From: Escherichia coli
Lineage (GTDB): Bacteria > Pseudomonadota > Gammaproteobacteria > Enterobacterales > Enterobacteriaceae
DNA length: 64,000 nt
Strand: one strand, 5' to 3'
Assembly (NCBI RefSeq): GCF_003334315.1
Contig: NZ_QOWR01000023.1
A program made the position numbers and the translations under genes. A model generated the notes under the pieces. The model was not told the origin of the DNA. It did no database searches and saw only the letters and a program-made list of their open reading frames with translations. Position 1 is the first letter of the stretch; the number at the start of each line of letters is the position of its first letter. Shown one piece after another: positions 1 to 46,397 of this stretch.

Positions 1-149
1 GGTTGAGAAGCGGTGTAAGTGAACTGCAGTTGCCATGTTTTACGGCAGTGAGAGCAGAGATAGCGCTGATGTCCGGCAGTGCTTTTGCCGTTACGCACCA
101 CCCCGTCAGTAGCTGAACAGGAGGGACAGCTGATAGAAACAGAAGCCAC
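1..149 (-). CDS. insA: insA (IS1 transposition protein InsA), 5' part only, GTG start at 149 reading leftwards
   Basis: Minus-strand translation from GTG at 147-149 gives [23 protein letters not shown]..., the InsA N-terminus; ORF is cut by the window edge. Confidence 0.7.
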
Positions 150-2099: not shown

Positions 2100-2194
2100 T
2101 GGCGGAAGATCACAGGAGTCGAACCTGCCCGGGACCGCTGGCGGCCCCAACTGGATTTGAAGTCCAGCCGCCTCACCGGAGACGACGATCTTCC
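2100..2194 (-). tRNA. selC: tRNA-Sec (selenocysteine tRNA, selC), 95 nt including CCA
   Basis: Minus-strand sequence GGAAGATCGTCGTCTCCGGTGAGGCGGCTGGACTTCAAATCCAGTTGGGGCCGCCAGCGGTCCCGGGCAGGTTCGACTCCTGTGATCTTCCGCCA matches E. coli selC as I remember it; long extra arm and UCA anticodon. Confidence 0.97.
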
Positions 2195-16364: not shown

Positions 16365-19542
<3,178 letters not shown>

Positions 19543-27265: not shown

Positions 27266-28075
27266 ATGCCTGAATTACCCGAAGTTGAAACCAGCCGCCG
27301 CGGCATAGAACCGCATCTCGTTGGTGCAACCATTCTTCATGCAGTGGTGCGCAACGGACGCTTGCGCTGGCCGGTTTCAGAAGAGATCTACCGTTTAAGC
27401 GACCAACCAGTGCTTAGCGTGCAGCGGCGGGCTAAATATCTGCTGCTGGAGCTGCCTGAGGGCTGGATTATCATTCATTTAGGGATGTCTGGCAGCCTGC
27501 GCATCCTTCCAGAAGAACTTCCCCCTGAAAAGCATGACCATGTGGATTTGGTGATGAGCAACGGCAAAGTGCTGCGCTACACCGATCCGCGCCGCTTTGG
27601 TGCCTGGCTGTGGACCAAAGAGCTGGAAGGGCATAATGTGCTGACCCATCTTGGACCGGAGCCGCTTAGCGACGATTTCAATGGTGAGTATCTGCATCAG
27701 AAGTGCGCGAAGAAAAAAACGGCGATTAAACCGTGGCTGATGGATAACAAGCTGGTGGTAGGGGTAGGGAATATCTATGCCAGCGAATCACTGTTTGCGG
27801 CGGGGATCCATCCGGATCGGCTGGCGTCATCACTGTCGCTGGCAGAGTGTGAATTGTTAGCTCGGGTGATTAAAGCGGTGTTGCTGCGTTCGATTGAGCA
27901 GGGTGGTACAACGCTGAAAGATTTTCTGCAAAGTGATGGTAAACCGGGCTATTTCGCTCAGGAATTGCAGGTTTACGGGCGAAAAGGTGAGCCGTGTCGG
28001 GTGTGCGGTACGCCGATTGTGGCGACTAAACATGCGCAGCGGGCAACGTTTTATTGTCGGCAGTGCCAGAAGTAA
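27266..28075 (+). CDS. mutM: formamidopyrimidine-DNA glycosylase (Fpg/MutM)
   Basis: ORF track; [21 protein letters not shown]-terminus; C-terminal zinc finger [26 protein letters not shown]. Confidence 0.96.
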
Positions 28076-28113
28076 TTCATGCGCGCCGGATGGCATACCA
28101 TCCGGCATAAACG

Positions 28114-29878
<1,765 letters not shown>

Positions 29879-30204
29879 AGTAAATAGCTGACTTATGGAT
29901 GTGCTGGGGATTCTATGTATTTAGCTGTGGCTTTACCATTACTTTTCCCGTTTTTGACTTAAATAGCAATTTACCCGCCAATTCTTGCTGAACATCTATA
30001 CTTTTTTTGTATTTTTATGCGATTCATTGATTTCTGCTGTACGTGCAGGAAGGAATCGCAGAGCAACAGTGAAAGAATATGGTTGCTAATGATTTTATTT
30101 GATTGATTTCTTTATTGAAAATCAACAATGTGCTTAAAAATCATTCGGGTCGGATTGCCGCGAAAGAAGTGATACACTAGCGCGTCAATATCAGTGCGGT
30201 ATCA

Positions 30205-30245
30205 GTATTCAGGTAGCTGTTGAGCCTGGGGCGGTAGCGTGCTTT
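30205..30245 (+). promoter_or_regulatory. JUMPstart element with ops site (GGCGGTAGCGTG at about 30229-30240) in the waaQ operon leader; RfaH-dependent antitermination
   Basis: Exact ops consensus GGCGGTAGCGTG about 50 bp upstream of waaQ. Confidence 0.8.
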
Positions 30246-30290
30246 TTCTGCTTCACCTTAATCGGATAATCTCAACAAAAAGAGTTACTT

Positions 30291-31349
30291 GTGGATAAGC
30301 CATTTCGAAGAATTTTGCTCATTAAGATGCGTTTTCATGGGGATATGTTATTAACTACTCCCGTCATTAGTTCGCTGAAAAAAAATTACCCTGACGCAAA
30401 AATCGATGTGCTGCTTTATCAGGACACCATCCCGATCCTGTCTGAAAATCCAGAGATTAACGCGCTCTACGGCATAAAAAATAAAAAAGCAAAAGCCTCA
30501 GAAAAAATTGCCAACTTTTTTCATCTCATCAAGGTATTACGTGCCAATAAGTATGACCTTATCGTCAATCTCACCGATCAATGGATGGTTGCTATACTGG
30601 TTCGCTTATTAAATGCCCGTGTGAAAATTTCCCAGGATTATCATCATCGGCAGTCTGCTTTTTGGCGTAAAAGTTTCACCCATTTGGTGCCGTTGCAGGG
30701 TGGAAATGTGGTGGAAAGTAACTTATCCGTGCTGACCCCATTGGGAGTTGATTCGTTGGTGAAGCAGACAACCATGAGTTACCCGCCTGCAAGCTGGAAA
30801 CGTATGCGTCGCGAACTTGATCACGCTGGTGTTGGACAAAATTATGTGGTTATCCAACCTACGGCGCGGCAAATCTTCAAATGCTGGGACAACGCCAAGT
30901 TTTCCGCTGTGATTGATGCCTTACATGCTCGTGGTTATGAAGTTGTTCTGACGTCCGGCCCAGATAAAGACGATCTGGCCTGCGTCAATGAAATTGCGCA
31001 GGGATGCCAGACGCCACCAGTAACGGCGCTGGCTGGAAAGGTGACCTTCCCGGAACTTGGTGCGTTAATCGATCATGCGCAGCTGTTTATTGGCGTTGAT
31101 TCCGCACCGGCGCATATTGCCGCTGCAGTTAATACGCCGCTGATATCGCTGTTTGGTGCGACAGACCATATTTTCTGGCGTCCCTGGTCAAATAACATGA
31201 TTCAATTCTGGGCGGGAGATTACCGGGAAATGCCAACGCGCGATCAGCGTGACCGAAATGAGATGTATCTTTCGGTTATTCCGGCGGCAGATGTCATTGC
31301 TGCTGTCGATAAATTACTGCCCTCCTCCACGACAGGTACGTCGTTATGA
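30291..31349 (+). CDS. waaQ: LPS heptosyltransferase III WaaQ (GT9); the true start is probably the ATG at 30327 (MRFHGDMLL)
   Basis: ORF track; GT9 heptosyltransferase; first gene after the JUMPstart; stop overlaps the waaG start (ATGA). Confidence 0.9.
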   Translation: MDKPFRRILLIKMRFHGDMLLTTPVISSLKKNYPDAKIDVLLYQDTIPILSENPEINALYGIKNKKAKASEKIANFFHLIKVLRANKYDLIVNLTDQWMVAILVRLLNARVKISQDYHHRQSAFWRKSFTHLVPLQGGNVVESNLSVLTPLGVDSLVKQTTMSYPPASWKRMRRELDHAGVGQNYVVIQPTARQIFKCWDNAKFSAVIDALHARGYEVVLTSGPDKDDLACVNEIAQGCQTPPVTALAGKVTFPELGALIDHAQLFIGVDSAPAHIAAAVNTPLISLFGATDHIFWRPWSNNMIQFWAGDYREMPTRDQRDRNEMYLSVIPAADVIAAVDKLLPSSTTGTSL

Positions 31350-32470
31350 TCGTTGCTTTTTGTTTATATAAATATTTTCCCTTTGGCGGTTTGCAGCGTG
31401 ATTTTATGCGTATTGCTCAGACAGTCGCCGCCCGAGGTCATCATGTTCGGGTTTATACCCAGTCGTGGGAAGGCGAATGCCCTGATGTATTTGAACTGAT
31501 CAAAGTGCCGGTTAAATCGCATACCAATCACGGGCGCAATGCGGAGTATTTTGCCTGGGTGCAAAAACATTTACGCGAACATCCCGTCGATAAAGTCGTT
31601 GGATTCAACAAAATGCCGGGGCTGGACGTTTATTATGCCGCTGATGTTTGTTATGCCGAGAAAGTAGCGCAGGAAAAAGGCTTTTTCTATCGCCTGACGT
31701 CACGTTATCGCCATTATGCCGCCTTTGAGCGGGCAACCTTCGAACAGGGCAAGCCGACACAGCTGCTGATGCTGACAGATAAGCAAATCGCCGATTTCCA
31801 GAAACATTATCAGACTGAAGCGGAGCGTTTTCATATTCTGCCACCGGGGATTTATCCTGATCGTAAATATAGCCAGCAGCCAGCCAATAGCCGTGAAATC
31901 TTCCGTAAGAAGAATGGAATAACCGAACAACAATATTTATTGTTGCAGGTCGGTTCAGACTTCACGCGTAAAGGTGTCGATCGTTCCATTGAAGCACTTG
32001 CTTCGTTACCGGATTCGCTGCGCCACAACACATTGCTATATGTTGTTGGGCAGGATAAACCGCGAAAATTTGAGGCACTGGCAGAAAAACGCGGCGTGCG
32101 CAGTAATGTTCACTTCTTCTCGGGGCGCAACGATGTCTCGGAATTAATGGCGGCGGCGGATTTATTACTGCATCCTGCCTACCAGGAAGCGGCGGGAATT
32201 GTGCTGCTGGAAGCGATTACTGCAGGATTACCGGTACTAACAACTGCCGTTTGTGGCTATGCGCATTATATTGTCGACGCTAATTGCGGCGAGGCTATTG
32301 CTGAGCCATTCCGCCAGGAAACATTGAATGAGATTTTACGCAAAGCGTTAACGCAATCTTCATTGCGCCAGGCTTGGGCGGAAAATGCGCGACATTATGC
32401 TGATACACAAGATTTACACAGTCTGCCAGAGAAAGCGGCGGATATCATAACGGGTGGTCTGGATGGTTGA
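31346..32470 (+). CDS. waaG: LPS core glucosyltransferase I WaaG (GT4)
   Basis: ORF track 374 aa, same length as K-12 WaaG. Confidence 0.93.
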
Positions 32471-33260
32471 ACTTAAAGAGCCGTTTGCCACGTTATGGCG
32501 CGGCAAAGATCCTTTTGAGGAAGTTAAAACCTTGCAGGGTGAGGTATTTCGTGAACTGGAAACTCGCCGTACTCTGCGCTTTGAAATGGCGGGCAAAAGC
32601 TATTTTCTCAAATGGCATCGCGGCACGACCCTGAAAGAGGTAATCAAAAATTTACTCTCATTGCGGATGCCAGTATTAGGCGCTGACCGCGAATGGAATG
32701 CGATTCATCGACTGCGGGATGTCGGCGTTGATACTATGTATGGGGTGGCATTCGGCGAAAAAGGCATGAATCCGCTGACCAGAACCTCGTTTATTATTAC
32801 CGAAGATCTGACACCAACCATAAGTCTGGAAGATTACTGTGCTGACTGGGCGACCAACCCACCAGATGTTCGCGTAAAGCGTATGCTTATTAAGCGTGTC
32901 GCGACGATGGTGCGCGATATGCATGCTGCGGGCATTAATCACCGTGACTGTTATATCTGTCATTTCCTGCTGCACTTGCCTTTTTCCGGTAAGGAAGAGG
33001 AGTTAAAAATTTCGGTAATTGACCTGCACCGGGCGCAGCTTCGCACGCGCGTTCCACGTCGTTGGCGCGATAAAGATCTTATTGGACTTTATTTTTCTTC
33101 GATGAATATTGGCCTGACTCAGCGGGATATCTGGCGGTTTATGAAGGTGTATTTTGCCGCTCCGCTTAAAGACATTCTCAAGCAGGAACAAGGACTGCTG
33201 TTGCAAGCAGAAGCAAAAGCCACAAAAATCAGGGAAAGAACGATTCGAAAATCGTTGTAA
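32463..33260 (+). CDS. waaP: LPS core heptose(I) kinase WaaP
   Basis: ORF track; [21 protein letters not shown]; kinase motif [10 protein letters not shown]. Confidence 0.93.
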
Positions 33261-33302
33261 CCCGTAACTTATTTTTGCCAAAATTTTGGATACAGAATAA
33301 AT

Positions 33303-34310
33303 ATGTCTCAACTCAATGATAGTGACATCATCCTTTTTGAGTATAATTTTCATTATCAAAATATAAGATCTAAAAATACTCTTGATATAGCATTTGGTAT
33401 TGACAGAAATTTTCTTTTTGGATGTGGTGTAGCCATCGCATCTATTCTATTAAACAATAGAGAAATCTCTTGTGAATTTCATGTTTTCACAGATTATATC
33501 AGTGATAAAGACAAATTATATTTTTCTGATTTAGCAAAACAATATAATTCAAGAATTAATATTTATGTTATCAATTGTGATAAGCTGAAGTCATTACCAA
33601 GCACGAAAAACTGGACTTACGCAACATATTTTCGATTTATAATTGCAGATTATTTCTATCATAAACATGAAAAAATACTATATCTTGATGCAGATATTGC
33701 TTGCAAGGGTAGTATTAAAGAACTCTTAGATTATCAATTTTCTACTAATGAAATTGCCGCAGTTGTAGCTGAAAGAGATGTTGAATGGTGGCAAAATCGA
33801 GCCTCGGTATTAACTACACCACAGTTAGCTTCTGGATATTTCAATGCTGGTTTTTTACTGATAAATATTGATGAGTGGAATCTAAATAACATTTCGTCAA
33901 AAGCTATTGAAATGTTGCGTGACCCAGATTGGGTAAGTAAAATCACCCACCTTGATCAAGATGTACTGAATGTATTATTGAATGGTAAAGTGAAGTTTAT
34001 TTCGGAGAAATATAATACCCGATATAGTATTAACTATGAATTAAAAGACAAAGTTGATAATCCAGTCAATGATGACACCGTGTTTATACACTATGTGGGA
34101 CCTACAAAACCCTGGCATGAGTGGGCTGACTATCCGGTGTCACGTAGTTTTTTGATCGCCAAAGCAGCTTCTCCGTGGAGTAAAGAAGATTTACTTAAAC
34201 CTGTAAATAGCAATCAGTATCGGTATTGTGCAAAACATAAATTTAAACAAAAGCATTATATGGCAGGCATTTTTAATTATTTAAAGTATTATAAAGAAAA
34301 ATGCTTCTAA
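33303..34310 (+). CDS. waaI: outer-core GT8 glycosyltransferase, R3-type WaaI (UDP-galactose:(glucosyl)LPS alpha-1,3-galactosyltransferase)
   Basis: ORF track 335 aa; GT8 DxD motif LYLDADIA; AT-rich; position after waaP as in the R3 locus. Confidence 0.75.
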   Translation: MSQLNDSDIILFEYNFHYQNIRSKNTLDIAFGIDRNFLFGCGVAIASILLNNREISCEFHVFTDYISDKDKLYFSDLAKQYNSRINIYVINCDKLKSLPSTKNWTYATYFRFIIADYFYHKHEKILYLDADIACKGSIKELLDYQFSTNEIAAVVAERDVEWWQNRASVLTTPQLASGYFNAGFLLINIDEWNLNNISSKAIEMLRDPDWVSKITHLDQDVLNVLLNGKVKFISEKYNTRYSINYELKDKVDNPVNDDTVFIHYVGPTKPWHEWADYPVSRSFLIAKAASPWSKEDLLKPVNSNQYRYCAKHKFKQKHYMAGIFNYLKYYKEKCF

Positions 34311-34335
34311 AGATTTAAGGTTAAAATAATTCATT

Positions 34336-35043
34336 ATGATATATAATAAAACGATAAATGGGTTGAAAGTTTTCATAAAAGATAATGATCCCTTTTATGA
34401 GCAAGTTCTAAATGACTTTTTAACTTGCAGGGTTAAAACATTAAAAGTTTTTCGTTCTATTGATGATACTAAAGTCATTCTTATTGACACTGCTCGTGGA
34501 CCTCTTGTACTTAAAGTTTATGCGCCAAAGCATAAAATGACCGAACGTTTCTTAAAATCTTGCATAAAAAAAGATTATTATGAAAATTTAATTTATCAAA
34601 CCGATCGGGTACGTGGTGAAGGCATCCAATCAATTAATGACTATTTTTTGCTAGCTGAACGTAAAACATTAAATTTCGCTCATTATTATATTATGCTCAT
34701 TGAGTATATTGAAGGTGTCGGGTTAAATGAGTATTTGGAAATTTCTGAAGATCTGAAGGATCAATTATCAGAATCGATAAAAGAGTTGCATCAGCATGGA
34801 ATGGTGTCTGGCGATCCTCATAAAGGAAATTTTATAGTATCCGAAAAAGGTTTAAGACTAATTGACCTTTCAGGTAAAAAAACAACCGCTGTTTTAAAAG
34901 CAAAAGATCGCATTGATCTTGAACGGCACTATAATATAAAAAATGAATTGAAAGACTTTGGCTATACATATCTTATATTCAAAAAGAAAATTAAAAAAGT
35001 AATCAGGGATGTAAAAGTCAAACTAGGATTGAAGAGCAAATAA
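34336..35043 (+). CDS. waaY: LPS core heptose(II) kinase WaaY
   Basis: ORF track 235 aa; Kdo/WaaP-family kinase fold (GDPHKGNF); AT-rich. Confidence 0.8.
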   Translation: MIYNKTINGLKVFIKDNDPFYEQVLNDFLTCRVKTLKVFRSIDDTKVILIDTARGPLVLKVYAPKHKMTERFLKSCIKKDYYENLIYQTDRVRGEGIQSINDYFLLAERKTLNFAHYYIMLIEYIEGVGLNEYLEISEDLKDQLSESIKELHQHGMVSGDPHKGNFIVSEKGLRLIDLSGKKTTAVLKAKDRIDLERHYNIKNELKDFGYTYLIFKKKIKKVIRDVKVKLGLKSK

Positions 35044-35067
35044 TGATTATGATGAAGGGTAATTAAA

Positions 35068-36081
35068 TTGGATTTTAAACATCTTACTCAATTTAAAGAT
35101 ATAATTGAACTGGACAAGCGCCCCGTTAAACTTGATGAACGGGAAACGTTTAATGTCTCATGGGGTATTGATGAGAACTACCAGGTTGGGGCTGCGATTT
35201 CAATTGCTTCAATTCTTGAAAATAATAAACAAAACAAATTTACCTTTCACATAATCGCTGATTACTTAGACAAAGAGTATATTGAATTATTATCACAATT
35301 AGCAACGAAGTATCAAACAGTAATTAAATTATATCATATTGATTCTGAGCCATTGAAGGCGCTACCTCAATCAAATATCTGGCCAGTATCTATTTATTAT
35401 CGTTTGCTTTCATTTGATTATTTTTCTGCGCGATTGGATTCATTATTATATCTTGATGCTGATATCGTCTGTAAGGGTTCATTGAACGAGTTAATAGCAT
35501 TAGAGTTTAAAGATGAATATGGGGCAGTGGTAATTGATGTAGATGCTATGCAAAGTAAAAGCGCTGAGCGTTTGTGTAATGAGGATTTTAACGGTAGCTA
35601 TTTTAACTCTGGTGTAATGTATATTAATTTACGGGAATGGTTAAAACAAAGACTAACGGAAAAATTCTTTGATCTATTATCAGATGAGTCAATTATAAAA
35701 AAATTAAAGTACCCGGATCAAGATATTTTAAACTTAATGTTTCTACATCATGCTAAAATATTACCGAGAAAATATAATTGTATTTATACTATAAAGTCAG
35801 AATTTGAAGAAAAAAATAGTGAATATTACACCCGGTTTATTAATGATGACACTGTCTTCATACATTATACTGGTATAACTAAGCCATGGCATGATTGGGC
35901 GAACTACGCCTCTGCAGATTATTTTCGTAATATTTATAATATATCACCATGGAGAAATATACCTTATAAAAAAGCTGTTAAAAAACATGAGTACAAAGAA
36001 AAATATAAACACTTGCTTTACCAGAAAAAATTTCTCGATGGTGTTTTTACAGCAATTAAATATAATGTTATGAAAGGTTAA
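35068..36081 (+). CDS. waaJ: outer-core GT8 glycosyltransferase, R3-type WaaJ (alpha-1,2-glucosyltransferase); TTG start
   Basis: ORF track 337 aa; GT8 motif LLYLDADIVCKG; paralogous to the preceding GT8 gene. Confidence 0.72.
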   Translation: MDFKHLTQFKDIIELDKRPVKLDERETFNVSWGIDENYQVGAAISIASILENNKQNKFTFHIIADYLDKEYIELLSQLATKYQTVIKLYHIDSEPLKALPQSNIWPVSIYYRLLSFDYFSARLDSLLYLDADIVCKGSLNELIALEFKDEYGAVVIDVDAMQSKSAERLCNEDFNGSYFNSGVMYINLREWLKQRLTEKFFDLLSDESIIKKLKYPDQDILNLMFLHHAKILPRKYNCIYTIKSEFEEKNSEYYTRFINDDTVFIHYTGITKPWHDWANYASADYFRNIYNISPWRNIPYKKAVKKHEYKEKYKHLLYQKKFLDGVFTAIKYNVMKG

Positions 36082-36089
36082 TATACGAG

Positions 36090-37232
36090 ATGGTTGATAA
36101 AATAATATTTACGGTTACTCCTATTTTTTCAATTCCTCCTCGCGGAGCGGCTGCTGTTGAAACGTGGATGTATCAGGTTGCTCAGCGTACCAATTTTCCA
36201 AATCGTATTGTTTGTATCAAAAATCCAGGATACTCAAATTACACCTTTGTTAATGATAATTGTAGTATTCATAGGGTTGGATTCAGTCGCATATATAAGC
36301 GGTTATTTCAAAAATGGACAAGACTTGATCCTCTTCCATATTCACAGAGAATATTGAATATTGCACATGATTTTCCTATAACGAAAGAAAGTGTTATTGT
36401 AGTTCATAATAGCATGAAGCTATACACTCAAATTCGTAAGCGAGCTCCTCAGGCAAGAGTGGTTATACATATGCATAATGCATTTGAACCAAAATTGCTT
36501 GAGCAAAATGTTAAAATGATAGTGCCTAGTTTATACTTGAAAAAGTATTACCAATCTTATTTAGCAAATGCAGATATTGAGATTGTACCAAATGGAATTG
36601 ATTTAGAAACCTATCAATCTAATTTTCAGCCGATCACTAGAAGCGAACTTAATATCTCCCCTGAAGAGAAAATTATTTTTTATGCTGGGCGTATCGTCCC
36701 TGACAAAGGCATATTGCTGTTGATGCAATCATTCGAAAAATTGGCCGCTGCTCACAAAAATTTAAAATTAGTTGTGATTGGTGATTATACAGAAATGAGT
36801 AAAAGTGACAAAGGTACATATCAACGCAATGTCAGGGAAATTGCAAAACGTTTGAAGGATCGTTGCATTATGTTAGGAAGCATACCGCCTGAAAAGATGC
36901 ATTGTTATTACCCACTGGCAGATTTAGTCGTCATTCCTTCCCAGTTCCAGGAACCATTTTGCATGGTGGCAATTGAAGCTATGGGTGCTGGTAAGCCTGT
37001 TTTAGTGAGTACGCGTGGGGGGATGACGGAATTTGTCAAAGAAAATACAACGGGATTCCATTTAAAAGAACCTATGACTGCAGACTCCATAAGCAGCGAT
37101 ATTTTAAAAACGTTAGCGAATCCTGAATTAACAGCAGTTGCAAAGCAAGGTCAGGACTTTGTGTTTGATCACTACAGTTGGGATGGCGTAACTCAAAGAT
37201 TCGAAGAGGTTATTCATAATTGGTTTGAATAA
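36090..37232 (+). CDS. waaD: GT4 glycosyltransferase, R3-type WaaD (terminal outer-core hexosyltransferase)
   Basis: ORF track 380 aa; GT4 EX7E motif EPFCMVAIEAMGAGKP; last gene of the waaQ operon, convergent with waaL. Confidence 0.7.
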   Translation: MVDKIIFTVTPIFSIPPRGAAAVETWMYQVAQRTNFPNRIVCIKNPGYSNYTFVNDNCSIHRVGFSRIYKRLFQKWTRLDPLPYSQRILNIAHDFPITKESVIVVHNSMKLYTQIRKRAPQARVVIHMHNAFEPKLLEQNVKMIVPSLYLKKYYQSYLANADIEIVPNGIDLETYQSNFQPITRSELNISPEEKIIFYAGRIVPDKGILLLMQSFEKLAAAHKNLKLVVIGDYTEMSKSDKGTYQRNVREIAKRLKDRCIMLGSIPPEKMHCYYPLADLVVIPSQFQEPFCMVAIEAMGAGKPVLVSTRGGMTEFVKENTTGFHLKEPMTADSISSDILKTLANPELTAVAKQGQDFVFDHYSWDGVTQRFEEVIHNWFE

Positions 37233-37234
37233 AT

Positions 37235-37264
37235 AAAAAGGCCGCATTATGCAGCCTTTTTTAT
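37235..37264. terminator. bidirectional rho-independent terminator between convergent waaD and waaL
   Basis: AAAAAGGCCGCATTATGCAGCCTTTTTT: imperfect hairpin flanked by A-run and T-run. Confidence 0.6.
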
Positions 37265-37267
37265 TTT

Positions 37268-38476
37268 TTACTTGTTTTTCATCGCTAATAATAAGCCGGC
37301 GTAAACGCCTAATAAATTTGGTTCAATTTGTTCTACGTTTCCACGGATAACAAAATAACCTATAAAAGATAGTAAGATTATATAATATGCATTATATGGT
37401 GAGCGATATTTATTCTTGACGCCATTTTTTATACACTCTTTCAATATTGCACAGTATAGCATCATAAGACTTACCAGCCCTAATAAACCAGTGCCAAACC
37501 AGATGAATAGCGCAAAATTATGTGGCCCTATTGATTGTCTAAAGGTCCATTCTGGATAATCAATGACACGTTTATTATAGACATCTTTATATGCAACGTT
37601 ACCGTAACCATAACCAATAACAGGATTTTCTAATATTAGATCGAGTGCGCTGCCTTGAGTACCATTTGCATAGCGATAAGAACTATTAGTTTGTTGAAGT
37701 TTATACGTTAGCTTTGCGGTCATCTCCTTATGTGTGAAAATAACCGACAATGCAATGATGGCAACCATTACTCCTACTAATAGTAACTTCCATTGTTTAA
37801 ACATCAGAATCCATATTAATCCAATGACTAACACGGAAAGCCAGGCCCCTCTGGATAAAGTTCCTAATATCAGAAAAATAAAAATAACGCTTAGAACCAC
37901 AAAAGAAATGCGGTATTTTGCTGATTTGATAAGCCAGAGATTTAACAATGCAGGGAATAAAAAGACCATCGAGTCAGAAATGCTACGGTGTCTATAATCT
38001 GCGAATGGCATTATCCCTTGTTGATAGTCCTTATAATAGGTAATCAATTCAGAAAAACAGCGTAAGCCCAACGCACTAATAAATGAGAAGAAAACGATTT
38101 TTTCGACATCTTCTCTTTTCTCGTCTCTCAATATGATCGGTATTGCTATTGTGCATAGTAAAGTATTCTCAATAATAGCTTTGAAAATTTCCTTCATGCT
38201 AGCACCTGCATCAGGGGATTGAAGAAGTGACAGCAATGCAGCAATAGTTAATATGGCAACACTACCAAAAAGAAATGTTTTAAATAGTGAGAGATAGTGT
38301 TTTGGCCGTTTGCAGAGATAGACGATTGTCGTTATTGTCATAAGAATAACAATAAGATGTTTATACCTTGTAATCCCACCCAAAAAATAGGTGGTAATGA
38401 ATAAGAATACGAGAGCTCTGTTCCAGTACGCTATCCAGTTTTTTTTCTCGAGAGAGAAAAATAATGTTGAGGTCAT
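37268..38476 (-). CDS. waaL: O-antigen ligase WaaL
   Basis: ORF track 402 aa; polytopic membrane protein, very AT-rich; convergent with the waaQ operon, upstream of waaC. Confidence 0.85.
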   Translation of the reverse strand: MTSTLFFSLEKKNWIAYWNRALVFLFITTYFLGGITRYKHLIVILMTITTIVYLCKRPKHYLSLFKTFLFGSVAILTIAALLSLLQSPDAGASMKEIFKAIIENTLLCTIAIPIILRDEKREDVEKIVFFSFISALGLRCFSELITYYKDYQQGIMPFADYRHRSISDSMVFLFPALLNLWLIKSAKYRISFVVLSVIFIFLILGTLSRGAWLSVLVIGLIWILMFKQWKLLLVGVMVAIIALSVIFTHKEMTAKLTYKLQQTNSSYRYANGTQGSALDLILENPVIGYGYGNVAYKDVYNKRVIDYPEWTFRQSIGPHNFALFIWFGTGLLGLVSLMMLYCAILKECIKNGVKNKYRSPYNAYYIILLSFIGYFVIRGNVEQIEPNLLGVYAGLLLAMKNK

Positions 38477-39465
38477 CTTATCTCCGATGTCAACTTATTG
38501 GTTATTATTTCAAGATTTAAATTTTGAAAAACGGTTTGAGCTGGCAAATCTGCAAGAGACATACTTGTAGAACGACACTCTACTTGATTCTTCCCATACC
38601 CACCAATTAATCCCGGATCGGTTGGTCCATAAACCGTGATATTGGGTCTATCCAGTGCCGCCGTTAAATGGCTTAACCCCGTATCCACCGACACTACAAA
38701 TTTAGCCCCGGCCAGCACGCGGGCAACGCCTTCCAGACTCATCTTCGGCAATACTTCAACATAAGCAAATCCTTCCGCCAGTCGTTTCGCCCGTTCTTCC
38801 TCATGCGGCGCGCCCCACGGAAGTTTAATCCGTATTCCTGAATCAGCCAGTAAACCAATCAATTCTCGCCAGTGTTCTTCCGGCCAGTGTTTATCATCAC
38901 GGGTCGTCGCATGAAGAAATACGGCATATTCGCCAGCATCTGTAGGCAGGTTCGTCAGAAAATGCTGTGCGATAGCATAATCGCCCTGGGTTTGCGGTTT
39001 GCTATAGCCCAAACTTTTGGCAAACAGTTCGCGGGTGCGTTCTACGGCGTGCTGCTGTTTTGCAATATGATGCTTACAATTGTAAAACAGGCTGGCTAAA
39101 GGTTCGCGAGCGGTTTGCCAGTCCAATCCATGCTTTACGCCATGCGCCAGACGTGTCACCAGTGCCGCGCTTTTTACCAGCCCCTGAGCGTCGATAACTG
39201 CGTCATAGTTCTCTGCTTGTAGCGCTTCACGAAACGCTTTGCGTTCAGCTTTTATGGGGGCCGAGAACCAGGCTTTACGCCAGCGACGTATTGCCACAGG
39301 AATAACTCGCTCAACGGCAGCGTGCCAGGAAGGAATCTGTGCGAACCCTTCTTCCACCACCCAGTCAAACTTAATCCCTGGGATTGCCTGCTGGGCATCA
39401 GTGAGTGCGGGCAACGTATGGAGAACATCGCCCATCGACGATGTTTTAACGATCAAAACCCGCAT
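38473..39465 (-). CDS. waaC: LPS heptosyltransferase I WaaC
   Basis: ORF track 330 aa; MRVLIVKTSSMGDVLHTLPALTDA; 4-bp overlap with waaL. Confidence 0.92.
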   Translation of the reverse strand: MRVLIVKTSSMGDVLHTLPALTDAQQAIPGIKFDWVVEEGFAQIPSWHAAVERVIPVAIRRWRKAWFSAPIKAERKAFREALQAENYDAVIDAQGLVKSAALVTRLAHGVKHGLDWQTAREPLASLFYNCKHHIAKQQHAVERTRELFAKSLGYSKPQTQGDYAIAQHFLTNLPTDAGEYAVFLHATTRDDKHWPEEHWRELIGLLADSGIRIKLPWGAPHEEERAKRLAEGFAYVEVLPKMSLEGVARVLAGAKFVVSVDTGLSHLTAALDRPNITVYGPTDPGLIGGYGKNQVECRSTSMSLADLPAQTVFQNLNLEIITNKLTSEIR

Positions 39466-39468
39466 CCG

Positions 39469-40515
39469 TCAGGCTTCCTCTTGTAACAATAGCGCGTTGA
39501 GTTCTTCCAGTACGCGCTGGGGAGTAATGTCGATCAAGCTCTGGTGATAACCCTCCGCAGCGTCACCTTTACGCACTTTGTGATAGCCGGTAATCAGACG
39601 GATCACGCGCGCTTTATGGGATAGCGGCGGTGTGAAGTCCGGGCTACTTGGACCATACAGGGCAACCAGCGGACGATTGAGCGCCGCCGCAACGTGCATC
39701 AGGCCAGAATCGTTAGTGACAATGGCTTTACAGGCTGCAATCAGGATAACCGCTTGATCAAGCTGTGTTTCCCCCGCCAGGTTCCGACACCATGCCTGCT
39801 GCTCGGTATTCAAAGCGGCAAGAATCTCATTGCCCGCTTCATGATCTTTCGCAGAGCCAAACAGAACCACCTGATAACCTTCATCAATCAGCTGCTTTGC
39901 CAGTTCCGCATAGTGGTAGTGTGGCCAGCGTTTTGCCGGACCAAACTCCGCACCCGGGCAAAAGCCAATCATCGGACGTTCTGATGAAAGCGAAAATTGA
40001 TTACAGGTATATGATTTTTCACCTTCGCTCACCTGCAACTGCGGCCATAACAATGGCTGCGGCAGATCTTGTGCTGTGCGCATAATGCCTTTGTCATAGG
40101 CCAGCGCTATATAGCGTTCCACCATTAGCGGCCAGGCTTCTTTATCGAGCACGCGTACATCGTTGAGTAAACCGTAGCGCATCTCGCCGCGCCAGCCGGT
40201 GCGATGAGGAATACCCGCGAAGAAAGGCACTAATGCGGATTTGAAGGAGTTAGGTAAGACGTAGGCGCGGTCGTAGCGCTTTTCACGCAGGCTATGACCC
40301 AGTTTGCGGCGTTCGCCGATTTCCAGCGCTCCGTGACCGAGAGGCATAGGGATAGCTTCGTTAACTTCCGGCATCCGCGATAATAATGGACGGCACCATG
40401 CCGGTGCCATCACATCGATTATCGCCTGGGGATAGCGCGCCTGGAGCGTGCGATAGAGACTTTGCGACATCATCATGTCGCCAACCCAAGACGGGCCGAT
40501 CACCAGTATTTTCAT
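39469..40515 (-). CDS. waaF: LPS heptosyltransferase II WaaF
   Basis: ORF track 348 aa; MKILVIGPSWVGDMMMSQSLYRTL. Confidence 0.94.
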   Translation of the reverse strand: MKILVIGPSWVGDMMMSQSLYRTLQARYPQAIIDVMAPAWCRPLLSRMPEVNEAIPMPLGHGALEIGERRKLGHSLREKRYDRAYVLPNSFKSALVPFFAGIPHRTGWRGEMRYGLLNDVRVLDKEAWPLMVERYIALAYDKGIMRTAQDLPQPLLWPQLQVSEGEKSYTCNQFSLSSERPMIGFCPGAEFGPAKRWPHYHYAELAKQLIDEGYQVVLFGSAKDHEAGNEILAALNTEQQAWCRNLAGETQLDQAVILIAACKAIVTNDSGLMHVAAALNRPLVALYGPSSPDFTPPLSHKARVIRLITGYHKVRKGDAAEGYHQSLIDITPQRVLEELNALLLQEEA

Positions 40516-40524
40516 GCAGAGCTC

Positions 40525-41457
40525 TTATGCGTCGCGATTCAGCCAGGCCATGTATTCCGTTACACCTTCAGCAACGGTTTTGAACGGTTTGTCGTAACCC
40601 GCCGCGCGCAGATTTGTCAGATCTGCCTGAGTGAACGCCTGATAGCGGCCTTTCAGTTTATCCGGGAACGGAATGTATTCGATCTGGCCTTTCTTGTGAT
40701 AAGCCAGCGTAGCATCTGCTACTGCCTGGAAGGATTCTGCACGACCGGTGCCGAGGTTGAAGATACCGGAAACGCCATTTTCCAGGAACCACAGGTTTAC
40801 ATCTGCCACGTCGCCCACATAGACGAAGTCACGTTTGAAGTTCTCGCTACCTTCGAACAGCTTCGGTGATTCACCGTTATTAAGCTGGGTGTTGAGATGG
40901 AAAGCGACGCTCGCCATGCTGCCTTTATGGCCTTCACGCGGTCCATAAACGTTGAAATAGCGGAAGCCAACAATCTGCGAGTTAGCTTCAGGCAGGATTT
41001 GGCGAACATATTCATCAAACAGGAATTTTGAGTAACCGTAGACGTTCAACGGTTTTTCGTACTCGCGGGATTCAATAAAGTCGGAGGTGCGTCCGCCGTA
41101 GGTGGCTGCGGAAGAGGCATACAGGAACGGGATTTTGCGCTCCAGGCAGTAGTGCAGCAGCTCCTTGGAGTATTGATAGTTGTTATCCATCATATACTTG
41201 CCGTCCCACTCGGTGGTGGAAGAGCACGCGCCTTCGTGGAAAATCGCTTCGACATCGCCGAACTCTTCGCCAGCCATAATCTGGATCAGGAAGTCTTCCT
41301 TATCCATATAGTCTGCGATATTCAGATCCACCAGGTTCACAAACTTGGTGCCGTCTTTCAGGTTGTCCACCACCAGAATATCGGTGATGCCTTTATCATT
41401 CAGGGCTTTAACGATGTTGCTGCCGATAAAGCCCGCGCCGCCGGTAACGATGATCAT
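40525..41457 (-). CDS. hldD: ADP-L-glycero-D-manno-heptose 6-epimerase HldD (RfaD)
   Basis: ORF track 310 aa; [23 protein letters not shown] Rossmann N-terminus. Confidence 0.96.
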
Positions 41458-41760
41458 AACTGTAACCTTCGAATTATGGAGTCAGAGACAATCTCAGACA
41501 CGAATGTCTGTAATCATACCATCACATCCGAATCCCTTCAGCCCTTTACATAGAGGTGCAAGGATGCTAATTGCAACAAACTAGTTTGGGTTTTAGCTAG
41601 TCCTTCATGGCGGATGTTGGTTTTGCATGTGAATAGTGCTTTAGTATCAATATTCCGATGTATGATAAATAACGGAAGCATTTGAATGGATAATATACAG
41701 TATACATTCTATTAATATTTATGATATAATTCTTTTTTTATATTAATGGTCTTATTAGTA

Positions 41761-42618
41761 ATGAAATCATCCACCACAATTATCACTGCATATTTTGACA
41801 TTGGTAGAGGGGATTGGACTGCTAATAAAGGGTTCCGTGAAAAACTAGCTCGTTCAGTTGATGTTTATTTTAGTTACTTTGAGCGTCTGGCCGCACTTGA
41901 AAATGAGATGATTATTTTCACTTCTCCCGATTTGAAACCAAGGGTTGAAGCGATTCGCAACGGAAAACCAACAACGGTTATCGTTATCGATATAAAAAAG
42001 AAATTTAGATATATCAGAAGTCGTATCGAAAAAATTCAAAAAGATGAGTCGTTTACAAATAGACTTGAGCCTCGACAATTAAAAAACCCAGAGTACTGGT
42101 CACCAGAGTATGTTTTGGTATGTAACCTTAAGGCCTATTTTGTAAATAAAGCTATCAACATGGGTTTAGTGAAAACGCCTCTTGTTGCGTGGATAGATTT
42201 TGGCTATTGCCGTAAGCCAAATGTAACTCGAGGATTGAAAATTTGGGATTTCCCATTTGATGAAAATAAGATGCATCTTTTCACTATAAAAAAAGGGCTT
42301 ACTGTTACATCTCAACAACAGGCTTTTGATTTCATGATTGGCAATCATGTATATATTATTGGGGGCGCAATTGTTGGTTCACAGCATAAATGGAAAGAAT
42401 TCTATAAATTAGTTCTGGAAAGTCAAAAAATAACACTAAACAATAACATTGTGGACGATGACCAGGGCATTTTTGTCATGTGCTATTACAAACGCCCCGA
42501 TCTCTTCAACCTAAACTATCTGGGGAGAGGAAAATGGTTCGATTTGTTTCGCTGCTTCAGGAGTAACACTTTAGGGGCAAAAATGCAGGCGCTGAGAATT
42601 TTCCTTTCAAGAAAATAG
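41761..42618 (+). CDS. htrL: HtrL (YibB) protein, LPS-associated
   Basis: ORF track; MKSSTTIITAYFDIGRGDW start at ATG 41761; AT-rich; divergent from hldD. Confidence 0.85.
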   Translation: MKSSTTIITAYFDIGRGDWTANKGFREKLARSVDVYFSYFERLAALENEMIIFTSPDLKPRVEAIRNGKPTTVIVIDIKKKFRYIRSRIEKIQKDESFTNRLEPRQLKNPEYWSPEYVLVCNLKAYFVNKAINMGLVKTPLVAWIDFGYCRKPNVTRGLKIWDFPFDENKMHLFTIKKGLTVTSQQQAFDFMIGNHVYIIGGAIVGSQHKWKEFYKLVLESQKITLNNNIVDDDQGIFVMCYYKRPDLFNLNYLGRGKWFDLFRCFRSNTLGAKMQALRIFLSRK

Positions 42619-42663
42619 GTTTCCCTCCATTAGTGGGTAGCGTTTTGATACCAACTGAGATAG

Positions 42664-42696
42664 GAAAAATGATGCTTTGGCATCATTTTTTCTTTT
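42664..42696 (+). terminator. rho-independent terminator after htrL
   Basis: Perfect 7-bp stem ATGATGC-tttg-GCATCAT followed by TTTTTTCTTTTT. Confidence 0.75.
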
Positions 42697-42892
42697 TATA
42701 TCAATGCAGTAAAATCAATCATCATTATGCCCAGCCAAAACTGTACAGTTTTTCTACTATCTGTAGGTGTTGAGAGACATCAAGTTACACGTTATTTATC
42801 CTGAATTTTGCAGAAGTGTTAACGCGTTATCTCGTCGCGACCTATAAGTTTGGGTAATATGTGCTGGAATTTGCCCTGTCTGGAGAATCGCA

Positions 42893-44089
42893 ATGCGTGG
42901 AGAATTTTATCAGCAGTTAACCAACGATCTGGAAACCGCACGGGCGGAAGGGTTGTTTAAAGAAGAGCGCATTATTACGTCTGCGCAGCAAGCAGATATC
43001 ACTGTGGCTGATGGAAGCCACGTCATTAACTTTTGTGCCAACAACTATCTCGGGCTGGCGAATCATCCTGATCTGATTGCGGCGGCAAAGGCGGGAATGG
43101 ATTCTCACGGTTTCGGCATGGCTTCGGTGCGTTTTATTTGCGGCACTCAGGACAGCCATAAAGAGCTTGAACAAAAACTGGCGGCCTTCCTGGGGATGGA
43201 AGATGCGATTCTCTACTCTTCCTGCTTTGATGCTAACGGTGGCCTGTTTGAAACGCTTCTGGGTGCGGAAGACGCCATTATCTCCGACGCACTGAACCAC
43301 GCGTCTATTATTGATGGTGTGCGTCTGTGCAAAGCTAAACGCTATCGCTATGCCAACAACGATATGCAGGAGCTGGAAGCACGTCTGAAAGAAGCGCGTG
43401 AAGCCGGTGCGCGTCATGTGCTGATTGCCACCGATGGTGTGTTCTCAATGGACGGCGTGATTGCCAACCTGAAGGGCGTTTGCGATCTGGCAGATAAATA
43501 TGATGCCCTGGTGATGGTAGACGACTCCCACGCGGTCGGTTTTGTCGGTGAAAATGGTCGTGGTTCCCATGAATACTGCGATGTGATGGGCCGGGTCGAT
43601 ATTATCACCGGTACGCTTGGTAAAGCGCTGGGCGGGGCTTCTGGTGGTTATACTGCGGCGCGCAAAGAAGTGGTTGAGTGGCTGCGCCAGCGTTCTCGTC
43701 CGTATCTGTTCTCCAACTCGCTGGCACCGGCCATTGTTGCCGCATCCATCAAAGTACTGGAGATGGTCGAAGCGGGCAGCGAACTGCGTGACCGTCTGTG
43801 GGCGAACGCGCGTCAGTTCCGTGAGCAAATGTCGGCGGCGGGCTTTACCCTGGCGGGAGCCGATCACGCCATTATTCCGGTCATGCTTGGTGATGCGGTA
43901 GTGGCGCAGAAATTTGCCCGTGAGCTGCAAAAAGAGGGCATTTACGTTACCGGTTTCTTCTATCCGGTCGTTCCGAAAGGTCAGGCGCGTATTCGTACCC
44001 AGATGTCTGCGGCGCATACCCCTGAGCAAATTACGCGTGCAGTAGAAGCATTTACGCGTATTGGTAAACAACTGGGCGTTATCGCCTGA
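42893..44089 (+). CDS. kbl: 2-amino-3-ketobutyrate CoA ligase (glycine C-acetyltransferase)
   Basis: ORF track 398 aa; [28 protein letters not shown]. Confidence 0.96.
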
Positions 44090-45362: not shown

Positions 45363-46397
45363 ATGATGAACAGCACCAATAAACTTAGTGTTATTATTCC
45401 GTTATATAATGCGGGCGATGATTTCCGCACTTGTATGGAATCTTTAATTACGCAAACCTGGACTGCTCTGGAAATCATTATTATTAACGATGGTTCAACG
45501 GATAATTCTGTTGAAATAGCAAAGCATTACGCAGAAAACTATCCGCACGTTCGTTTGTTGCATCAGGCGAATGCTGGCGCATCGGTGGCGCGTAATCGTG
45601 GGATCGAGGTGGCAACGGGCAAATATGTCGCTTTTGTCGATGCTGACGATGAAGTCTATCCCACCATGTACGAAACGCTGATGACCATGGCGTTAGAGGA
45701 CGACCTCGATGTAGCGCAGTGCAACGCTGACTGGTGTTTTCGTGAAACGGGAGAAACCTGGCAATCCATCCCCAGCGATCGCCTTCGCTCAACCGGCGTA
45801 TTAACCGGCCCGGACTGGCTGCGGATGGGGCTTTCTTCGCGCCGTTGGACTCACGTTGTCTGGATGGGGGTTTATCGCCGCGATGTTATTGTTAAAAATA
45901 ACATTAAATTTATTGCCGGATTACATCATCAGGATATTGTCTGGACAACAGAATTCATGTTTAACGCTTTGCGTGCGCGATATACCGAGCAATCGTTATA
46001 TAAATATTATCTGCATAATACGTCAGTGAGTCGGTTGCATAGACAAGGGAATAAAAACCTTAATTATCAACGTCACTATATTAAGATTACCCGCCTGCTG
46101 GAGAAATTAAATCGAAATTATGCCGACAAAATTACGATTTATCCGGAATTTCATCAGCAAATAACTTACGAAGCATTGCGTGTTTGCCATGCGGTGCGCA
46201 AAGAGCCGGATATTCTTACCCGCCAACGGATGATTGCCGAGATATTTACTTCCGGTATGTATAAGCGCCTGATTACCAATGTGCGCAGCGTGAAGGTGGG
46301 TTACCAGGCGTTACTGTGGTCTTTCCGCTTATGGCAATGGCGCGACAAAACGCGGTCGCACCATCGCATTACGCGTAGCGCCTTTAATTTGCACTAG
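45363..46397 (+). CDS. waaH: GT2-family glycosyltransferase YibD (WaaH)
   Basis: ORF track 344 aa; GT2 N-terminus LSVIIPLYNAGDDF and DAD motif (VDADDEV). Confidence 0.88.
   Translation: MMNSTNKLSVIIPLYNAGDDFRTCMESLITQTWTALEIIIINDGSTDNSVEIAKHYAENYPHVRLLHQANAGASVARNRGIEVATGKYVAFVDADDEVYPTMYETLMTMALEDDLDVAQCNADWCFRETGETWQSIPSDRLRSTGVLTGPDWLRMGLSSRRWTHVVWMGVYRRDVIVKNNIKFIAGLHHQDIVWTTEFMFNALRARYTEQSLYKYYLHNTSVSRLHRQGNKNLNYQRHYIKITRLLEKLNRNYADKITIYPEFHQQITYEALRVCHAVRKEPDILTRQRMIAEIFTSGMYKRLITNVRSVKVGYQALLWSFRLWQWRDKTRSHHRITRSAFNLH

Follow-up and report, generated by a model that had tools for sequence, protein, structure and literature searches.

Organisation of the waa locus

Positions 30291–38476 of the window (the whole 64,000-nucleotide stretch of Escherichia coli DNA analysed here) hold eight open reading frames, all of them intact and full length in the ORF listing of the window. 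The genes waaQ-G-P-I-Y-J-D follow one another on the plus strand and face waaL, which is convergent with them and ends the hldD-waaF-waaC-waaL operon that hldD (rfaD) opens (Table 1). Gene content, order and intactness were read directly from the ORFs. The conserved left flank is waaA, divergent from waaQ, and waaP is the final gene common to all core types. For the genes beyond waaP the original prediction gave the order GT8, kinase, GT8, GT4 and a convergent waaL, which is correct by Pfam and NCBIfam assignment and by the ORF coordinates. In strain CP53 the stretch is 100% identical and the PGAP annotation gives the same genes; the one difference is an IS5 copy that separates hldD from yibB in CP53 and is absent from the window, the locus being otherwise identical. 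No IS element was found in 28000–44000, either among the ORFs or in the alignment to O157:H7 Sakai, and the ORFs of the window include no mobility genes at the locus.

Table 1. Coordinates of genes and other features at the waa locus, with the evidence for each.
Feature	Position	Strand	Evidence
waaA (Kdo transferase)	28601..29878	-	ORF; PGAP name; protein 100% identical to WaaA of MG1655 and of Sakai
JUMPstart element in waaQ leader	30203..30241	+	Rfam RF01707, 55.2 bits vs gathering score 35
ops motif GGCGGTAGCGTG	30230-30241	+	within JUMPstart
waaQ (heptosyltransferase III)	30291..31349	+	NF007742 (RfaQ), 713 bits; 99.4% identical to Sakai
waaG (GT4 glucosyltransferase I)	31346..32470	+	PGAP name; 99.5% identical to Sakai, 90% to MG1655 WaaG
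waaP (heptose I kinase)	32463..33260 (alternative start 32454)	+	NF011703 (RfaP), 479 bits
R3-specific cassette (waaI to waaL plus 3' ~110 bp of waaC)	33261..38584		33.1% GC; breakpoints by blastn
waaI (GT8 UDP-Gal:(glucosyl)LPS alpha-1,3-galactosyltransferase)	33303..34310	+	NF011718, 619.6 bits vs cutoff 461
waaY (heptose II kinase)	34336..35043	+	NF007684 (RfaY), 390.5 bits; 99.6% identical to Sakai
waaJ (GT8)	35068..36081	+	PF01501 and PF08437; PGAP product name
waaD (GT4)	36090..37232	+	PF00534; NF012028 (WaaK/WaaD subfamily), 769.7 bits
Likely terminator: A-run/hairpin/T-run between convergent waaD and waaL	37235..37261		terminator scan: AAAAAGGCTGCATAATGCGGCCTTTTT, 12 pairs
waaL (R3-type O-antigen ligase)	37268..38476	-	NF012031 (RfaL), 692.7 bits; PF04932 (Wzy_C)
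waaC (heptosyltransferase I)	38473..39465	-	NF008204; 3' end inside type-specific block
waaF (heptosyltransferase II)	39469..40515	-	NF008162, 751.8 bits
hldD/rfaD (ADP-heptose 6-epimerase)	40525..41457	-	PGAP name; 99.7% identical to MG1655 and Sakai
yibB/htrL	41746..42618	+	low-GC accessory gene, predicted GT-A glycosyltransferase fold

WaaI, which carries the Pfam domains PF01501 and PF08437, is 100% identical to its Sakai counterpart. WaaJ, the second GT8 paralogue, scores below the NCBIfam cutoff of the LPS 3-alpha-galactosyltransferase model and equals the Sakai copy except for a TTG start. WaaY shares 51–57% identity with the proteins of other core types. WaaD and WaaL share 99.7% and 100% identity, respectively, with the Sakai proteins; comparison of WaaL with the K-12, R1 and R4 ligases gave no match.

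The ops match in the waaQ leader is the only one in the window. JUMPstart and ops together form the site for RfaH-dependent antitermination, and the element in its 5' leader suggests that the waaQ operon belongs to the RfaH-dependent (JUMPstart/ops) class of long operons. At the other end, the 35-bp gap between waaD and waaL contains what is, by consensus match only, a likely bidirectional intrinsic terminator. A promoter scan of the locus returned 33 matches against 32.3 in shuffled sequence; there is no excess, and no promoter is claimed.

Assignment to the R3 core type

Core-typing primers taken from PMC13293308 were run on the window as in-silico PCR. The R3 primers match exactly, R3-R at 35152–35174 in waaJ and R3-F at 36153–36172 in waaD, and the R3 product, the only one obtained, runs from waaJ to waaD with a length of 1021 bp, the same as that published. 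No R1, R2, R4 or K-12 primer site is present in the window at three or fewer mismatches. The primers were validated on reference genomes, assigning Sakai to R3, MG1655 to K-12, BCE049 to R1, WCHEC005237 to R2 and UMNK88 to R4. The R4 reference was located by its partial similarity to the waaW-waaV-waaL segment of R1; several other candidate loci for it proved to be R1.

Protein alignment to typed references leads to the same assignment. WaaI, WaaY, WaaJ, WaaD and WaaL are 99.6–100% identical to those of Sakai, whereas the same five proteins show 23–58% identity, or no match, to those of the K-12, R1, R2 and R4 loci. An alignment of 16 kb to Sakai is gapless at 99.2%, and from waaL to yibB the window is likewise 99.2% identical to EDL933, an O157:H7 strain whose core is R3 by mass spectrometry (10.1101/536201). 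The window also contains waaD, a gene described as confined to R3 strains (PMC3899070). The R3 locus of O157:H7 (Sakai ECs_4497–4508; EDL933) has the same genes, order, orientation and lengths, and in both that locus and the window yibB stands beside hldD.

Each of the other core types can be ruled out. The K-12 type is excluded by the lack of K-12 primer sites in the window, by outer-core proteins at most 57% identical to those of MG1655 and by the lack of a WaaL match. MG1655 shares the frame of the locus, namely waaA, waaQ-G-P, waaL-waaC-waaF-hldD, yibB and the JUMPstart leader, with WaaQ, WaaG and WaaP at 73%, 90% and 84% identity; its outer core is nevertheless encoded by waaS-B-O-J-Y-Z-U, an order that the original prediction had named and that MG1655 confirms, with 23–57% identity to the window proteins and an unrelated ligase. 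The R1 and R4 types are excluded by the lack of primer sites, by identities of at most 55% and by the lack of a WaaL match to the typed loci. R1 and R4 loci consist of waaO-T-Y-W plus waaV (R1) or waaX (R4), with waaL on the same strand. The R2 and Salmonella enterica waa locus is more alike, in that a GT4 gene (waaK; here waaD) likewise directly precedes a convergent waaL, and the NCBIfam WaaK-type and RfaL models both score above cutoff on the window proteins. The R2 locus differs in carrying waaS-like, waaB, waaO, waaJ, waaY, waaZ and waaK genes, and the R2 type is excluded by the lack of R2 primer sites (expected amplicon 610 bp), by the lack of waaZ and by a WaaD that is 57% identical to R2 WaaK.

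We conclude that 30291–38476 almost certainly belongs to a chromosomal waa (rfa) locus that is intact and of R3 core type, the E. coli background being commensal-like. The original prediction of an R3 rather than a K-12 locus is borne out by gene order and lengths, which are identical to Sakai with no point of conflict, by best GT8, GT4 and WaaL matches to R3, and by the R3 amplicon. The locus was thus correctly identified but is already known, and its copy here is essentially that of O157:H7. The background differs from O157:H7: the closest whole-window matches are commensal or animal isolates of 4.4–4.9 Mb, not EHEC, the flanking core genes are ∼1.1% divergent, and, at least in the nearest relative, the nearby selC carries no LEE. 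The R3 core type is also that of the prototype F653 and of Shigella flexneri 2a.

Of 5426 complete E. coli genomes, 1364 (25.1%) carry the R3 cassette at ≥95% identity over its full length, in agreement with a published R3 prevalence of 25.79%. It forms a discrete class, the remaining genomes all showing 60–80% identity with partial coverage, and only one E. coli core type is commoner than R3.

The type-specific cassette

The limits of the cassette were set by blastn against R1, R2, R4 and K-12 loci, in which similarity stops at 33156–33260 and resumes at 38585. The block had originally been described as strongly AT-rich relative to the flanking core, and per-gene GC shows this to be real: waaI to waaL range over 0.31–0.37, the flanks over 0.47–0.54, and the window as a whole has 0.498. 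Divergence from Sakai is 0.11% in the cassette, with 6 substitutions over its 5.3 kb, against 1.11% in the flanks (Fisher p = 1.5e-14), and the drop coincides with the type-specific breakpoints. The breakpoints and this pattern of divergence are direct observations. Horizontal replacement, as first proposed from composition, therefore gains support from a second source, and recombinational exchange of the cassette fits because its divergence from Sakai is tenfold lower than that of the flanks. The 5.3-kb low-GC block at 33261–38584 is one of the five cassettes that can occupy this site, and it probably passes between lineages through homologous recombination in the conserved flanks.

Low GC could instead be a long-standing property of the outer core, with ancient alleles held under diversifying selection and no recent replacement in this lineage. 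The central regions are low in GC in all five core types (PMC8715443), and mobility genes at the locus are absent both in that study and in the window. Vertical descent of cassette and flanks together would, however, predict similar divergence in the two, and the cassette is tenfold closer to the O157:H7 copy than the adjoining core genes are; we regard descent without recent replacement as unlikely. Great age and recent exchange are compatible, since old alleles can still be recombined recently. A hybrid or degraded R3-like locus, such as an R3/R2 mosaic or one with pseudogenes, would give a truncated or different core. Such loci exist in E. coli, in the form of hybrid R2/K-12 and IS-disrupted loci (PMC13293308); SCU-308 has frameshifted R1 genes, the R1 locus of LB19b is disrupted by IS1, and R2 is the nearest of the non-R3 types for WaaD (57%) and WaaL (51.5%). 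The eight full-length ORFs and the gapless alignment to Sakai, whose O157:H7 locus is functional, contradict this reading, as do the few substitutions in the cassette, the lack of an R2 primer site and the lack of IS elements in 28000–44000, and it is extremely improbable. The preferred reading remains an intact R3 cassette that has been exchanged by recombination.

Core assembly and the outer-core GlcNAc

The R3 core is Glc-(α1,2)-Glc-(α1,2)-Gal-(α1,3)-Glc with a GlcNAc branch, built on a phosphorylated tri-heptose inner core. The O157:H7 literature and the near-identity of the proteins point to enzyme activities, an RfaH dependence and a sugar structure that would be shared by the locus described here. 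The waaQ operon would be read from a promoter upstream of the JUMPstart/ops leader, RfaH being expected to suppress termination. WaaQ, WaaP and WaaY would finish and phosphorylate the heptose region, after which WaaG would add Glc I, WaaI the α-1,3-Gal, WaaJ the α-1,2-Glc II, a residue reported as the attachment point of the O antigen, and WaaD the terminal α-1,2-Glc III. WaaL would then join the undecaprenyl-PP-linked O antigen to the completed core.

These enzyme specificities rest on passages in papers that cite Kaniuk et al. 2004, and for WaaD two of the sources disagree. A passage of PMC3899070 that cites Kaniuk et al. 2004 reports WaaD as a glucosyltransferase, in contrast to R2 WaaK, a GlcNAc transferase. 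PMC3184986 instead depicts WaaD as the enzyme that attaches GlcNAc. PGAP names WaaD an N-acetylglucosaminyltransferase and WaaI 'waaO'; neither label matches the activity reported for R3, which makes this a practical correction to annotation.

The genes of the R3 locus alone leave the outer-core GlcNAc of the published structure (10.1101/536201) unaccounted for, and a passage of the same source reports the responsible enzyme as unidentified. The original prediction had noted that, for R3, a complete outer core in O157:H7 is reported to need an additional plasmid-encoded transferase, wabB, implying that the core would be incomplete here unless such a plasmid were present. The title of Kaniuk et al. 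counts in favour of that dependence. It is not upheld, as the passages available from papers citing Kaniuk et al. have WabB act on heptose III, an inner-core residue, to which it adds an α-1,7-linked GlcN(Ac) according to 10.1101/536201, and most R3 genomes lack the gene. Because WabB acts on heptose III, it is dispensable for completing the outer core. wabB, known from pO157p80 (NC_002128.1, 87659–88765), occurs in 548 of the 5426 genomes, so that at most 40% of the 1364 R3 strains carry it and at least 60% do not. Plasmids, mostly those of EHEC, account for 547 of the 550 sites at which it lies, whereas the genomes nearest the window are small commensal-type strains. It was not found in the part scanned, the first 50 kb, of one plasmid of the near relative TOE3. 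Incompleteness of the outer core for want of wabB is thus very unlikely; wabB is an inner-core decoration carried on EHEC-type plasmids and no requirement for the R3 outer core.

Next to hldD lies the low-GC gene yibB/htrL. YibB is predicted with high confidence to adopt a GT-A fold, for which fold comparison gives retaining GT6 and GT8 enzymes as the nearest structural matches; comparison with the sequences of solved structures gave no significant match. Among complete genomes yibB adjoins all 1364 of 1364 R3 loci, against 14.6% of non-R3 loci. A copy 99% identical is present in K-12, and yibB adjoins at least one R1 locus; as an R3-specific marker it was rejected, since it also stands beside K-12-type loci and one R1 locus. 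Its divergence from Sakai suggests that it is not merely carried along with the cassette in a single recombination tract, although its constant company with R3 might also come from chromosomal linkage and a clonal population structure. That YibB/HtrL takes part in R3 core assembly, possibly as the transferase that puts α-linked GlcNAc on the outer-core galactose, is a long shot.

As a candidate for GlcNAc transfer to the R3 outer core, yibB/htrL is the only item here that might repay further work. The phages and antibodies relevant to a strain, and the chemistry by which its O antigen is ligated, depend in part on the core type, and a correct call of R3 is for this reason a useful annotation.

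Core type and gene content

The original prediction described a waaQ-G-P-I-Y-J-D operon with a convergent waaL, and this description is accurate as judged by the ORF list, NCBIfam, Pfam and PGAP; its gene list for K-12 is also right for the MG1655 locus. PGAP calls the same genes in strain CP53, in a stretch 100% identical to the window. The waaL and waaC ORFs, both on the minus strand, overlap by 4 bp. GC content is 0.31–0.37 across waaI to waaL, compared with 0.47–0.54 in the flanks.

Features of the waa region and of the selC end of the window
Feature	Position	Strand	Assignment
IS1, end	about 1–149		
Tyrosine integrase	616–1800	-	
tRNA-Sec (selC)	2104–2194	-	
JUMPstart element and ops motif	30203–30241		Rfam RF01707, 55.2 bits
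waaQ	30291–31349	+	NCBIfam RfaQ
waaG	31346–32470	+	GT4, lacking a specific NCBIfam model; PGAP name waaG
waaP	32454–33260	+	NCBIfam RfaP
waaI	33303–34310	+	NCBIfam LPS 3-alpha-galactosyltransferase, above cutoff; Pfam GT8 PF01501 + PF08437
waaY	34336–35043	+	NCBIfam RfaY
waaJ	35068–36081	+	GT8 PF01501 + PF08437; LPS 3-alpha-galactosyltransferase model, below cutoff
waaD	36090–37232	+	GT4 PF00534; NCBIfam WaaK-type 'LPS N-acetylglucosaminyltransferase' subfamily
A-run/hairpin/T-run	37235–37261		Consensus match only
waaL	37268–38476	-	NCBIfam RfaL; Pfam Wzy_C; convergent to waaD
waaC	38473–39465	-	NCBIfam RfaC
waaF	39469–40515	-	NCBIfam RfaF
hldD	40525–41457	-	ORF in the same series as waaC and waaF
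Low-GC segment	41506–42788		1.28 kb
yibB/htrL	41746–42618	+	PF09612; GC 0.37; within the low-GC segment
waaH	45363–46397	+	UDP-glucuronate:LPS(HepIII) glycosyltransferase (NF007482, 635 bits)

The window was searched in silico with the nine LPSTyper typing primers (PMC13293308, Table 2). Both R3 primers match exactly, at 35152–35174 (+) and 36153–36172 (-), with a product of the published size, 1021 bp; the non-R3 core-typing primers have no site in the window at up to 3 mismatches. For comparison we used the waa loci of five genomes typed with the same primers, O157:H7 Sakai (R3), MG1655 (K-12), BCE049 (R1), WCHEC005237 (R2) and UMNK88 (R4). WaaI, WaaY, WaaJ, WaaD and WaaL are 100, 99.6, 99.7, 99.7 and 100% identical to their Sakai counterparts, the difference in WaaJ and WaaD being due solely to Met put for a TTG or GTG start, whereas their highest identities to the K-12, R1, R2 and R4 proteins are 58, 57, 44, 57 and 51.5% respectively. 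No match to WaaL was detectable in the K-12, R1 and R4 reference loci. Positions 28000–44000 (16 kb) align with Sakai without gaps at 99.2% identity. Primers, protein identities and alignment thus agree on an R3 rather than a K-12 type, as first proposed, and neither a best match to another core type nor a conflicting gene order was found.

Chemical characterisation of R3 comes from O157:H7. The core of its strain EDL933 is R3 by mass spectrometry (10.1101/536201), and an EDL933 genome is among the full-length matches to a query running from R3 waaL through yibB. The gene waaD has been described from R3 strains only (PMC3899070). We conclude that the locus is correctly identified as R3, a well known and common type.

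Since the proteins are nearly identical to those of O157:H7, published assignments would have WaaI adding Gal and WaaJ adding Glc II (PMC3184986), with WaaL ligating the O antigen. Publications differ over the sugar that WaaD transfers, Glc or GlcNAc: it is given as a glucosyltransferase, with primary biochemistry cited (PMC3899070), or is pictured as an N-acetylglucosaminyltransferase, in a Shigella paper (PMC3184986). PGAP names the WaaI gene waaO, and PGAP and NCBIfam label WaaD 'lipopolysaccharide N-acetylglucosaminyltransferase' through a WaaK-like subfamily model; these automated names are at odds with reported R3 biochemistry.

Together with its ops motif, the JUMPstart element 50 bp upstream of waaQ is a recognised mark of long polysaccharide operons that depend on RfaH; the RirA sRNA is annotated at the corresponding position in MG1655. 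The symmetric A-run/hairpin/T-run occupies the space between the converging genes waaD and waaL and could plausibly terminate transcription in both directions.

Boundaries and history of the cassette

Similarity to R1, R2, R4 and K-12-type loci ends at 33156–33260, the end of waaP, and similarity to non-R3 loci restarts at 38582–38585, ∼110 bp within the 3' end of waaC. These breaks define a type-specific cassette at 33261–38584, of 5.3 kb and 33.1% GC compared with 49.8% for the window. It differs from Sakai by 6 substitutions in 5324 bp (0.11%), against 119 in 10677 bp (1.11%) for the flanks (Fisher p = 1.5e-14), and the shift in divergence coincides with the cassette edges. This pattern is what would be expected if the cassette crossed between the window and Sakai lineages by homologous recombination after their split, without indicating which was the recipient. 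Horizontal replacement, originally proposed from the AT-rich composition, is thus supported, and by the low divergence better than by the low GC. Low GC is common to all five core types (PMC8715443), so the cassette alleles may be old.

The supposedly conserved waaQ-G-P segment (30291–33260) falls into two deep allele classes. WaaQ, WaaG and WaaP of MG1655 and the R2 strain are 73%, 88–90% and 84% identical to those of the window, and the proteins of the R1, R4, Sakai and K-12-type Ec55 loci are 92–99.7% identical; recombination breakpoints therefore differ among loci of one outer-core type.

WabB, WaaH and YibB

According to the original prediction, plasmid-encoded WabB is reported to be needed for a complete outer core in O157:H7. 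This does not hold, to judge from published papers, 10.1101/536201 among them, in which WabB (formerly RfbU-like; pO157p80) adds alpha-1,7 GlcN to the inner-core heptose III of the R3 core. Among 5426 complete E. coli genomes, wabB occurs in 548 (550 places, 547 on plasmids), which is at most 40% of R3 genomes even were all carriers R3; carriers among the matches listed are O157, O26, O111, O121 and O145 strains. The literature describes O157 R3 cores without GlcUA on HepIII, that heptose being occupied by WabB (10.1101/536201). R3 strains lacking wabB, possibly including the strain studied here, might carry the GlcUA modification.

The protein that adds the outer-core GlcNAc to galactose in R3 is reported as unknown (10.1101/536201), which makes YibB a candidate. 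The window shares the low-GC segment containing yibB with Sakai, CP53 and MG1655; the R1, R2, R4 and Ec55 loci compared lack it. Matches to the waaL–yibB query at ≥80% coverage, which requires both genes, number 1364 genomes, equal to the number with the R3 cassette, so that apparently all R3 loci have yibB; it is found in 595 of 4062 non-R3 genomes (14.6%; raw counts, clonal structure ignored) and in 1959 of the 5426 overall, always on the chromosome. PF09612 members are found repeatedly in core loci for LOS and LPS, in Salmonella, Campylobacter and Acinetobacter, and NCBI names some 'WlaTC/HtrL family glycosyltransferase', the family being still among proteins of unknown function in a 2023 paper on the A. 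baumannii outer-core locus. Divergence from Sakai is 1.7% for hldD and 0.8% for yibB, in contrast to the cassette, so in this pair yibB did not simply ride in the same tract. Against this role, however, yibB is 99% identical in K-12, adjoins K-12-type loci and one R1 locus too, and lies only 3 kb from the cassette. We consider it improbable that YibB is the R3 GlcNAc transferase.

A predicted-structure search with YibB (AFDB50) gave close structural relatives at 24–27% sequence identity, some annotated HtrL, from nematodes, molluscs, many bacteria and one viral metagenome. In CP53 an IS5 lies between hldD and yibB (17457–18437 of the CP53 stretch compared; window ∼41458–41745); the window has none there.

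Distribution of R3 and linkage to selC

The outer-core segment 33303–37232 is present at full length and ≥95% identity in 1364 of the 5426 genomes (25.1%), and essentially all the others have a partial match at 60–80% identity, which makes R3 a discrete class. Of 4505 typed genomes in a published survey, 25.79% were R3. The cassette has a minor sequence variant, with 1118 genomes at ≥99% and 246 at 95–99%, and in some of the latter WaaJ loses its specific PGAP name. R3 is overrepresented among EHEC and among strains of phylogroups B1, D and E, and is found in phylogroup A too (PMC8715443); the top whole-flank matches of the window are to non-EHEC isolates of 4.4–4.9 Mb, of human, pig, duck and frog origin.

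An island inserted at selC has its edge in the first 2194 nucleotides of the window and continues beyond it. In the near relative TOE3 the selC island spans about 7 kb, carries an integrase, an IS1, an autotransporter and a second IS1, and has no LEE. Only about 28 kb separate selC from the waa locus, and this linkage might contribute to the published association between LEE and R3 (PMC8715443), at least for selC-borne LEE.
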